64,000 nt of DNA from Escherichia coli (lineage in GTDB: Bacteria > Pseudomonadota > Gammaproteobacteria > Enterobacterales > Enterobacteriaceae), in NCBI RefSeq assembly GCF_003019035.1, contig NZ_CP027447.1; one strand, given 5' to 3'. The position numbers were made by a program, and so were the translations under genes. How positions within the stretch are numbered: position 1 is the first letter of the stretch; every line of letters begins with the position of its first letter. The notes below the pieces were generated by a model, which saw nothing but the letters and a program-made list of their open reading frames with translations, was not told the origin of the DNA and ran no database searches. This document shows positions 50,376-52,494 of this stretch, one piece after another.

Positions 50376-50397
50376 AAGCCAGCCTTTATTTTTTTAT
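50365..50397 (+). terminator. Rho-independent terminator at the S / cassette junction
   Basis: ggctggc-ataaaa-gccagcc followed by tttatttttttat; the S stop codon lies in the loop. Confidence 0.6.
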
Positions 50398-51251
50398 GTG
50401 ATGGCCCCTATCTTTTGATTGTAATAACTATAATCAGCATGTTCTTCTGTATAAAAAATCTCAAATGCAGACAAGATGTTTGCGTAAAAACTATCCTTGG
50501 ATATAGAGGTTTTTTTATTGATGGATGCCAAAAAGTTTGTTATAAATCTTAATGATGCTGAGAAAAGAAAGTGCCCTTTCACCCAATGATTTATAGATGT
50601 ATTTTCTGGGAATTGAATGTTGTTTTTTTCTGCCAAACCATTAGTAGTAAACGATTCAGGTAGTCTATTGATATATTCATCTATTTTTTTCTTGCATATA
50701 TTGTATGAATTTCTTGATTGCATAAAACGATCACAGGAATCACCAATTACGGAGCATCCTAATTTATTTAAATGATTGTGAATATCTAGTATTATTAAGT
50801 TCTCAATGTTGCTATAGAAGTTAGAAAGCCAATTTCCTACATCTATTTCCTGCATTTTTTTTGTGCAAAAACGGCCTGTGTTTTTGAGTATGTGTGATAT
50901 GATTTTTTCATCAATGATTGTGTTTTCTATTGAATATCCCTTTGTGTAAATAATATTTGTATGCTTTACTATGTTGTCAGAAAAATGGTTTAGATCCGAA
51001 TCTCTGGCAACTATGGCGTTTATTTCTCCTGAGGTTATTTTTTCGATATATGGTTGTAAAGCTTCACATCCACCAACATCTTGAACTTCTACATTAAAAC
51101 GACCATTTTTTTTAAAAATTATTTCCCAAAAAGCAATGTCATCTTCACCTTCAACATAGACCATAATATCAGCATCATAAAATAAACTGATCACATTTTC
51201 CGCTTCATTAGACCAAGAAAAGTTTTCTGCATTAGAATCATTGATTAGCAT
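50394..51251 (-). CDS. DUF4435/TOPRIM-like protein (AriB-like candidate effector)
   Basis: 285-aa ORF overlapping the upstream ATPase gene by 14 nt; conserved acidic motifs MVYVEGEDD and ARDSD consistent with a TOPRIM/OLD-type fold; AT-rich. Confidence 0.7.
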   Translation of the reverse strand: MLINDSNAENFSWSNEAENVISLFYDADIMVYVEGEDDIAFWEIIFKKNGRFNVEVQDVGGCEALQPYIEKITSGEINAIVARDSDLNHFSDNIVKHTNIIYTKGYSIENTIIDEKIISHILKNTGRFCTKKMQEIDVGNWLSNFYSNIENLIILDIHNHLNKLGCSVIGDSCDRFMQSRNSYNICKKKIDEYINRLPESFTTNGLAEKNNIQFPENTSINHWVKGHFLFSASLRFITNFLASINKKTSISKDSFYANILSAFEIFYTEEHADYSYYNQKIGAIT

Positions 51252-52494
51252 TGACTAATCTCTCCATATTGAAAATGGCGTTTTTATATTTAGATGCAAC
51301 TTCAGGAGAATGGGTTGCAGCAATAATTTGTGCATTAGGATTTAATTTTTTTATGGCAGGGATAATATTTCTTTGCCATTGAATATGTAAGGAAAGCTCA
51401 GGCTCATCAGTTAGGAAAATATATTGTTGCCCTCTTTGTAAGAGGGTCTCAATGAATAAAATTAGCAGTTGTTTTTCACCAGAAGATAAACTTTCTAAAA
51501 CTATTGGCCCATAGGTGTTATTTATGACTAACAATCCCGATTGAAAATGAAATTCTTTATCGGTGATAAAATTTCTTAGTATGCTTAAGAATTGTTCTAT
51601 TGGAGAAAATATTTTTGATGTTTTCTCTTTTGAAGTTAATGACATTTTGATTATTTTTTGTGTTTTTCTCAATGCTTCGATCGAACGAATATCAAAGCCT
51701 CTTTCACTTTTATTCTTTAATTCTGAAATGGTATTATTAATTGTTTCAACATGAAAGCTGATTTTTTTACGAATGTTTTGATCAATAGCATTTAACTGTG
51801 TGTATGCATTAAGGAGGTTTTGTTTTTCTTCCTCTTTGTTAAAGTTAATGTTGTAAGCAGGATTCTCCATATCTTCCTTGCTATAAAGTATTGATGCCAG
51901 AACCTCTTTTTGAAGTTCTAATGCGATATCTCTGGCTTTCTGGGATAGTTCAAGTTGATATTTTGTAAGTTCCTGTATTAATTCTGATAACTTATAGTCA
52001 ACAGGGTTGATAAAACGAGAGCCATATTTATCTTTAACTTCAAAATCATCACTATTTCTTAATCTGTAAACAGATAAAGAAGAAAGCGAGACTAGTTTTG
52101 CTAGTTCTGTTCTTAGTTCTTCTGTTTCATCATGCACTCTACGTCTATAACTAAGAGATATTCTTCTATCATCAGTGTTAAATAAACGAATTGTGTGTTT
52201 TTTAGATGAAAGCTGATATTCTATTTTGGAAAATGGAGATGTATCGCTTTCAAGTTTTTTGACTTTGATTGTTTTTGTCTTTTTTTTATCTTTAAGTTTT
52301 ATTTCGGCACTATTGAAATCAGCATTGTTAATACTGTCCAAATCAAGGGATAATATTGAGTGCAGAAGGTTCATAAAGGTTGTTTTACCCGTGCCATTTC
52401 GGCCTATAATAATGTTTACATCATCATTAAATGAGCAGGAACAGTTTAATCGCTGCCAAAAGCCATTAATTGTGACGCTTTGAATTTTATACAT
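51238..52494 (-). CDS. ABC/SMC-type ATPase (AriA-like candidate sensor)
   Basis: 418-aa ORF; Walker A GRNGTGKTT, ABC signature LSSGEKQLL, Walker B IFLTDEPELSLH, H-loop ATHSPE; AT-rich. Confidence 0.75.
   Translation of the reverse strand: MYKIQSVTINGFWQRLNCSCSFNDDVNIIIGRNGTGKTTFMNLLHSILSLDLDSINNADFNSAEIKLKDKKKTKTIKVKKLESDTSPFSKIEYQLSSKKHTIRLFNTDDRRISLSYRRRVHDETEELRTELAKLVSLSSLSVYRLRNSDDFEVKDKYGSRFINPVDYKLSELIQELTKYQLELSQKARDIALELQKEVLASILYSKEDMENPAYNINFNKEEEKQNLLNAYTQLNAIDQNIRKKISFHVETINNTISELKNKSERGFDIRSIEALRKTQKIIKMSLTSKEKTSKIFSPIEQFLSILRNFITDKEFHFQSGLLVINNTYGPIVLESLSSGEKQLLILFIETLLQRGQQYIFLTDEPELSLHIQWQRNIIPAIKKLNPNAQIIAATHSPEVASKYKNAIFNMERLVNANQ

Follow-up and report, generated by a model that had tools for sequence, protein, structure and literature searches.

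The PARIS systems of Escherichia coli pair an ABC ATPase, AriA, with a DUF4435/TOPRIM protein, AriB, and two of them serve as references for the present work. PARIS-2 of strain B185, for which structures are available (8UX9 and 8V45-8V49), is located in the psu-int hotspot of a P4 satellite, and PARIS-1 of strain O42, the second validated one (PMC9122126), has the same ATPase plus DUF4435 pair. Features of PARIS are a hexamer of AriA that sequesters three AriB subunits, activation by an anti-restriction or other trigger protein of a phage (Ocr, Ptr1/2) with ensuing growth arrest, and an anti-phage phenotype for which both genes are needed. The Old protein of phage P2, a class 1 OLD encoded in the A-Q hotspot of that phage, is likewise an ATPase-coupled TOPRIM nuclease, the product of a non-essential minus-strand exclusion gene of the P2 family, and it kills by cutting tRNA (PMC12445682); tRNA cutting has been demonstrated for two ATPase-coupled TOPRIM nucleases, PARIS AriB and P2 Old (PMC11464382, PMC12409363, PMC12445682). 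Here we describe a two-gene cassette of this architecture (positions 50394-52494) in a stretch of 64,000 nucleotides of an E. coli genome (assembly GCF_003019035.1, contig NZ_CP027447.1; the whole stretch is hereafter called the window). Very probably, this cassette is a PARIS system (an abortive-infection system of the OLD-like class 4) acting as lysogenic-conversion cargo of a P2/186-like prophage; it occupies the slot between tail genes S and V and is thus carried, in contrast with the satellite-borne B185 system, by the helper phage. We report its gene structure, its family membership as judged from sequence and predicted fold, its catalytic motifs, its evolution under purifying selection, and its recurrence in hotspots of mobile elements.

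P2-like phages have three classical moron regions, namely S-V, TO, and Z/fun, and the recent surveys of defence hotspots consulted here, which analysed A-Q, G-FI, and D/ogr-CI, do not name S-V. P2 itself (NC_001895) carries orf30 there (9439-10224, minus strand), a non-essential cargo gene flanked by the terminator of the O operon and the promoter of V, which corrects the statement of a first-pass annotation of this DNA that P2 has no genes between S and V. The cassette occupies the same slot on the same strand but, whereas orf30 is a single open reading frame (ORF) of unknown function, the window carries a probable two-gene defence system accompanied by variants of the S 3' end and of the V promoter.

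A gene pair encoding AriA and AriB homologues

The two genes are encoded on the minus strand, ariA (51238-52494; 418 aa, 48.5 kDa, isoelectric point (pI) 9.2) specifying the ABC ATPase, the putative sensor and scaffold, and ariB (50394-51251; 285 aa, 32.8 kDa, pI 5.1) the DUF4435/TOPRIM protein, the putative nuclease effector. The end of ariA overlaps the start of ariB by 14 nt (51238-51251), each gene has a Shine-Dalgarno sequence, that of ariB being GGAGAG, and this overlap together with the ribosome-binding site implies a single operon in which both genes would be translated in a coupled manner. The order ariA then ariB with an overlap is kept in distant hosts, since genes overlapping by 8-14 nt also occur at the Serratia and Salmonella loci and in a third E. 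coli allele (see below). Proteins identical to those of the window are found on 97 and 118 public contigs, where they are annotated just as “DUF4435 domain-containing protein” and “AAA family ATPase”. The first-pass annotation had described two overlapping minus-strand genes between S and V, in DNA strongly AT-rich relative to the phage backbone, and had proposed a PARIS/AriAB-like identity; positions, sizes, overlap, and base composition are as it reported, and the sequence motifs that it had read in both proteins are present as given below.

The ATPase conserves all the catalytic parts of its family: a Walker A motif (GRNGTGKTT, 31-39, with the lysine K37), the signature LSSGE (336-340, within LSSGEKQLL, 336-344), a Walker B motif (DEPELSLH, 363-370, with D363 and E364), and an H-loop (ATHSPE, 393-398, with H395). 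The corresponding Pfam profiles recognize it (AAA_15, 78.7 bits; AAA_21, 66.0 bits), and its best PADLOC match is the AriA model PDLC04164 (2.2e-38), although only to the C-terminal half of that profile. With PDLC02979, an AriA model matched over nearly its full length, the value is 2.8e-21, which is slightly poorer than those of the best models of PtuA, the ABC ATPase of Septu and of the retrons Ec78/Ec83, which is the next-closest one (PADLOC ~1e-23). On the basis of PADLOC alone, AriA and PtuA are therefore not distinguished, and NCBIfam gave only sub-threshold matches for the protein.

Comparison with solved structures does separate the two families. Among all solved structures, the best relative of the ATPase by sequence is AriA (8ux9, phmmer E 1e-20), and a profile built from 30 homologues retrieves AriA at 6.5e-26, followed by the retron PtuA family at 1.4e-14 (E values for PtuA structures range from 1e-8 to 1e-14). 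We reconstructed B185 AriA (residues 1-439) from the supplement of the paper and a PDB alignment; hhalign aligned this sequence end to end with the window protein (99.5% probability, 360 columns), matching K37 with K39 and E364 with E393, a catalytic residue of B185 AriA, and both K37 and E364 are invariant in the 30 homologues. An AlphaFold model (predicted local distance difference test (pLDDT) score of 80.5) gave the same answer: the top 15 PDB matches found by Foldseek are all AriA chains, with template modelling (TM) scores of 0.60-0.68 for 14 of them (E 4e-19 at TM 0.65), in comparison with TM below 0.5 for the PtuA fold. The ATPase can thus be aligned over its whole length, and with coincident catalytic residues, to a characterized AriA. 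A basic loop of the protein, DDRR..YRRR (109-118), aligns with the R116/R119 region of the central pore of B185 AriA. This loop is nearly invariant across the clade to which the window proteins belong, although published work reports low conservation of the pore residues from one PARIS clade to another.

The second protein matches the Pfam family DUF4435 with 93.9 bits (E 1.7e-26) over residues 28-248 of 285, in agreement with the earlier assignment to this family, and in PADLOC it is recognized only by AriB/AriAB models, the best being AriB PDLC02983 (2e-21). NCBIfam holds no model for an AriB-like protein, and PHROGs places both proteins of the cassette in families of unknown function, none of them structural. 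The acidic motifs MVYVEGEDD (30-38) and ARDSD (82-86) contain four of five residues (E34, D38, D84, D86, and E109) that are invariant in 30 homologues, as is a G226-H227-F-L motif, and hhalign aligns these five with E26, D30, D88, E90, and E122 of B185 AriB, the metal-binding TOPRIM residues of that enzyme (PMC11464382). The TOPRIM core also aligns with that of PARIS-1 AriB of O42 (hhalign E 6e-4 over 100 columns), a member of a different clade in which only the first ~100 residues can be aligned. Finally, a fold search with the predicted structure returned AriB as the sole strong match, so that this protein also appears, from its predicted fold, to be a homologue of an experimentally characterized AriB.

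The published rule for PARIS asks for adjacent genes matching AAA_15 with at least 32 bits or AAA_21 with at least 27 bits, plus DUF4435 with at least 27 bits (PMC9122126). The genes of the window are adjacent and co-oriented, with the ATPase upstream of the DUF4435 gene, as is expected of PARIS pairs that are not fused into one gene, and they exceed all these thresholds. The assignment of the pair to PARIS is accordingly supported by every computational criterion available, whether based on sequence (Pfam rule, best PADLOC models, top solved relative of AriA) or on predicted structure (sole strong fold match of AriB), and the identity proposed in the first-pass annotation can be retained. The cassette is a divergent further copy of PARIS, a family already known, and both its cargo slot and the phage family that carries it are likewise known.

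Other systems were considered and rejected. Septu and retron PtuAB systems, with or without a retron, have the HNH protein PtuB as partner instead of a DUF4435 protein, and the ATPase reaches 66.8 bits with the NCBIfam PtuA model against a cutoff of 500. In class 1 OLD and Gabija GajA (class 2) we would expect a fusion of ATPase and TOPRIM in a single polypeptide, and for Gabija the GajB helicase in addition; the two domains are not fused here and no helicase is encoded. AbiL was rejected on account of the effector, which has no RloB match in Pfam (neither RloB nor DUF4276 is listed among the Pfam matches of the DUF4435 protein). MADS3-4 was rejected as well, the ATPase scoring 28 bits with the NCBIfam MAD3 model (cutoff 420) and 3.9e-20 with PADLOC mad3, weaker than with AriA.

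Divergence from characterized PARIS and proposed mode of action

Several observations weigh against a simple extension of the PARIS reading to this cassette. AriA of the window (418 aa, versus 464 in B185) is only 19-22% identical to its B185 counterpart, and it is basic (pI 9.2), whereas B185 AriA (1-439) is acidic (pI 5.8). AriB (285 aa, versus 308 in B185) is more divergent still, with just 13-15% identity, and sequence searches against solved structures found no AriB, whether run with the single protein (E<=1) or with the 30-sequence profile (E<=10), which is why structure prediction and a fold search were needed to make the link. The hhalign comparisons of the AriB family with single validated AriB sequences are also weak (E 0.02 and 6e-4, with probabilities of 2% and 29%); we used them for residue mapping only, and the resulting mapping agrees with the fold match. 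Alignment to a characterized AriB, envisaged in the first-pass annotation, therefore holds for the catalytic core and the overall fold and fails at the level of direct sequence searches. Moreover, residues important in B185 AriB are not retained. K60 and K64, the “tweezer” lysines that are needed for defence in B185 and have been modelled on the tRNA anticodon loop, correspond to a non-lysine residue and to an 8-residue gap, respectively, and R28, which contacts AriA and tRNA, is replaced by E36. The only one of the four residues with a basic equivalent is R236, from the set contacting AriA and the D-loop, which aligns with K225. The O42 system, for its part, is silent from its native promoter and active only when over-expressed (PMC9122126), and the candidate promoter of the window cassette (see below) lies in AT-rich DNA where promoter-like sites are no more numerous than in shuffled sequence. 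Finally, a literature search for four accessions, which belong to E. coli copies nearly identical or related to that of the window, returned nothing, and we found no experiment on this clade.

K60, K64, R28, and R236 define the specificity of the B185 system, not the PARIS family. Because K60, K64, and R28 are not conserved, the details of target and interface cannot be transferred from B185 to the window cassette and, given the divergence of both proteins in identity, in these residues, and in pI, its description as an Ocr-triggered and tRNA-Lys-cutting system can only be conjectural. A PARIS architecture with a different output is, in fact, a serious possibility, even if not the one that we favour: the effector would cut something other than the tRNA-Lys/Thr/Asn set (other tRNAs, another RNA, or DNA) and the trigger would not be an anti-restriction protein of the Ocr type. 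The loss of K60/K64 and the R28 to E36 change speak for this alternative, as do the low identity of AriB to the tested protein, the opposite net charge of AriA, a published analysis finding that trigger-sensing pores differ between PARIS clades, and the class-dependent substrate, DNA or tRNA, of related OLD nucleases. Nevertheless, AriB retains its catalytic core and its overall fold, the basic AriA loop falls on the central pore, the binding site of the acidic Ocr, and both ATPase-coupled TOPRIM systems of P2/P4 elements tested to date cut tRNA.

For the PARIS cassette of the window, we infer complex formation, trigger, RNA target, and phenotype by homology with the B185 system. The lysogen would transcribe ariA and ariB leftward from their own promoter and translate them as a coupled pair. 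AriA, an ABC ATPase with a helical arm, would then assemble into an oligomeric scaffold keeping AriB inactive until a protein from an incoming, unrelated phage binds to it, possibly through the basic loop 109-118, which in the alignment matches the central pore with which B185 AriA senses its trigger. Upon this binding, AriB would be released, dimerize, and act as a two-metal TOPRIM endoribonuclease, most likely on host tRNA. Translation would stop and the infection abort, which would protect the lysogen population and hence the prophage. By analogy with B185, Ocr itself may be a trigger of the cassette.

A module probably exchanged by recombination within S and V

The host DNA of the window is E. 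coli chromosome, with a mdfA-rcdA stretch 99% identical, and the P2/186-like prophage (Peduoviridae) begins at ~30964, the window ending within its tail-gene region. Its nearest phage backbone is that of Escherichia phage 500465-1, in which the S-V site is empty (gap of 68 bp; locus L003), and we used the alignment with this phage to set the limits of the foreign DNA. Backbone homology stops at 50288, ~25 codons short of the normal end of S, and restarts at 52606, one base ahead of the V start codon, delimiting a foreign module of 2317 bp (50289-52605) that replaces the intergenic region between S and V together with the end of the S gene. Its GC content is 30.5%, in sharp contrast with the 55-57% of the flanking phage genes, and it contains no ORF besides ariA and ariB. 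To the left, the tail-completion gene S (49917-50375, plus strand) matches TIGR01635 with 116.6 bits (cutoff 37.65), albeit only over residues 3-133. To the right, the baseplate gene V (52607-53185, plus strand) matches TIGR01644 with 214.9 bits (cutoff 46.75), and its product is ~98% identical to V of phage 500465-1 (3 differences over 192 residues, counted manually).

As shown by comparison with L003, with two other S-V PARIS alleles (L007 and L008), and with P2, the last ~25-29 codons of S (50289-50375) are a divergent AT-rich variant carried with the cassette, so that the C-terminus of the S protein is supplied by the foreign block (…GCEKLIRKIFIMNLFSGDWLA). Each S-V PARIS allele has its own divergent AT-rich S end, at 50289-50375 in the window, 3850-3929 in L007, and 5878-5950 in L008, and the recombination breakpoints are therefore located inside S. 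We found no terminal direct or inverted repeats flanking the block, and consequently no sign of transposition or site-specific insertion. Since the block brings with it an S 3' end and a V promoter region and lacks flanking repeats, it represents the exchange of a module rather than a clean insertion, and the sequence points to a swap by recombination within S and V instead of insertion by an enzyme of a mobile element. The earlier view of a cassette inserted between S and V was thus right about the position and has to be modified as to the simple insertion.

The signals of the phage late operons appear to be maintained around the cassette, which lies, as expected of moron cargo, between S and V, with the terminator of the O operon on one side and the late promoter of V on the other. 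A terminator scan identified the Rho-independent terminator of the late O operon at 50365-50394 on the plus strand (GGCTGGC-loop-GCCAGCC, hairpin 50365-50384, followed by a T run). It overlaps the stop codon of S and abuts that of ariB, and P2 has a terminator annotated at the equivalent place after S. On the other side, a TGT-N12-ACA element (TGTGTCATTCTCAGTACA, 52543-52560, plus strand) is found on foreign DNA 46 nt upstream of the V start. We take it to be an Ogr/Delta-type late-activator site, here of the V operon. The empty-site phage and the two other S-V alleles have this motif ahead of V as well, P2 has an activator-binding site annotated at the equivalent place, and the retention of the motif means that late transcription of V should be preserved.

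Divergent from the V promoter, a candidate sigma-70 promoter of ariAB (52560-52588, minus strand) consists of TTGAAA and CATAAT separated by 17 nt and is the top site of the scan, with 10 of 12 matches. Both hexamers and the 17-nt spacing are kept in the 78%-identical allele L007, in which the spacer sequence differs, and this conservation between the two alleles, the sole basis of the assignment, suggests that the site may drive the operon. We detected no Rfam families between 49800 and 53300. No tRNA genes were found in the window either, so that it contains no rescue tRNA of the prophage.

Two other AT-rich islands occur in hotspots of the same prophage. The first (39000-42000, 33-43% GC) lies in the A-Q (old/tin) hotspot and contains an ORF of 560 aa (40274-41956, plus strand) that matches, in PADLOC, the candidate defence family PDC-S49 (E 3.7e-25) and, in NCBIfam, no model. 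The second (56900-58800), in the G-FI (Z/fun) hotspot, contains an ORF of 345 aa (57017-58054, minus strand) weakly similar to NolL-like acyltransferases (68 bits versus a cutoff of 425) and with no PADLOC hit; this gene is possibly a lipopolysaccharide or O-antigen acetyltransferase moron.

Distribution and evolution of the cassette

We screened 5426 complete E. coli genomes, ~1050 of which have S and V flanks of this type. PARIS of the same clade occupies the S-V slot in 29 genomes, as three diverged alleles: that of the window in two genomes (98% identity), a second one, 78% identical (L007), in nine, and a third (L008; AriB 45% and AriA 63% identical) in 18 as well as in many draft assemblies. 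In an evenly spaced sample of 60 flank matches, 31 sites were empty, 23 were occupied by at least nine kinds of cargo, and six showed only V. Genes of the SIR2, TIR, and AIPR types were confirmed between S and V in other E. coli P2-like prophages (L014, L015, and L016). Further cargo in the sample comprised FRG, a P-loop NTPase, DUF6216, and several hypothetical proteins, DUF6216 being the occupant of the slot in E. coli B derivatives (T7Express and B-StaR).

This distribution is difficult to reconcile with the idea that the two genes serve tail or baseplate morphogenesis in this phage lineage, for which only their position between S and V speaks. In about half of the related prophages the S-V site is a bare 68-bp gap or holds unrelated cargo, the cassette is on the strand opposite to both late operons and has a foreign base composition, homologues exist outside prophages, and the matched PHROGs are not structural. 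We therefore rejected such a role, the slot being empty or otherwise filled in most relatives, and regard it as extremely improbable; the first-pass annotation had named conservation of the two genes as morphogenetic genes at S-V in all P2-like phages as one of the observations that would contradict it, and the 31 empty sites among 60 show that this is not the case.

Outside E. coli, the same clade is found in the A-Q (old/tin) site of Serratia P2-like prophages and in decayed remnants of such prophages. In Salmonella enterica (L013, 3758-5858), an ariAB pair 64-77% identical is carried by a conjugative element (with MobA, TraD, and PilS/shufflon) near an Mrr_cat restriction-type nuclease, from which it follows that the cassette moves between hotspots of phages and of conjugative elements. 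Heavily decayed P2-like remnants of E. coli EC596 (L001, 12683-27650) and Serratia marcescens (L004/L005) keep an intact PARIS even though their head genes and much of the tail cluster have been deleted and gpA and the portal are truncated; this persistence suggests selection at the level of the host.

The same persistence could be expected of an addiction module stabilizing the prophage, with AriA as antitoxin, AriB as toxin, and no real anti-phage role. The depositors of 8v45-8v49 indeed name AriA “antitoxin”, and the Pfam entry for AAA_21 reads putative AbiEii toxin, type IV toxin-antitoxin domain. Nonetheless, deletion of either B185 gene was non-toxic and abolished defence, and the authors of that work took a toxin-antitoxin function as excluded (PMC9122126). 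As host-level selection for defence would explain the persistence in remnants just as well, and the other occupants of the S-V slot are defence-type genes, we find an addiction role very unlikely.

Across the clade, identity to the window proteins ranges from 54 to 86% for AriA and from 35 to 72% for AriB. The ratio of nonsynonymous to synonymous substitution rates (dN/dS) is below 0.25 in the four AriB comparisons in which it could be computed, and all AriA comparisons are saturated at synonymous sites; both genes are, judging from these substitution patterns, under purifying selection. Given these low AriB ratios and the existence of hundreds of homologues of the cassette proteins, the genes are real. 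It is also very unlikely, even more so than addiction, that they are an inactive or decaying passenger, that is, acquired DNA with intact frames and no current function. Such a view could invoke the closest copy of the cassette in a complete genome, which is located in a heavily decayed prophage, and the lack of strong promoter evidence, but both frames are intact with all their catalytic motifs, the exact proteins recur on the many public contigs mentioned above, and the three alleles combine saturated synonymous sites with conserved proteins. In every pair compared (the window versus L006, L007, L008, and L013), dN of AriB is 1.5 to 2 times that of AriA. The sensor is consequently better conserved than the effector, which is unexpected if the sensor is the main target of phage escape.

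Implications for PARIS and P2-like phages

The general understanding of PARIS or of P2 biology is left unchanged by this locus, and its practical value is modest. More speculatively, S-V may be a further anti-phage hotspot and its PARIS a distinct clade, with a basic and conserved AriA and a fast-evolving AriB devoid of K60/K64, responding to a different trigger and acting on a different set of RNAs, an idea that we put forward only tentatively. As a cassette of 2.3 kb that can be cloned, the pair could show how the trigger and tRNA specificities of PARIS vary between clades, and the conserved anchors S and V can be used to mine more defence genes. The cassette adds to the family a divergent PARIS clade with its natural prophage context, and it indicates that the third classical moron slot of P2, S-V, carries defence-type cargo (PARIS, SIR2, TIR, and AIPR) like the two better-studied hotspots.

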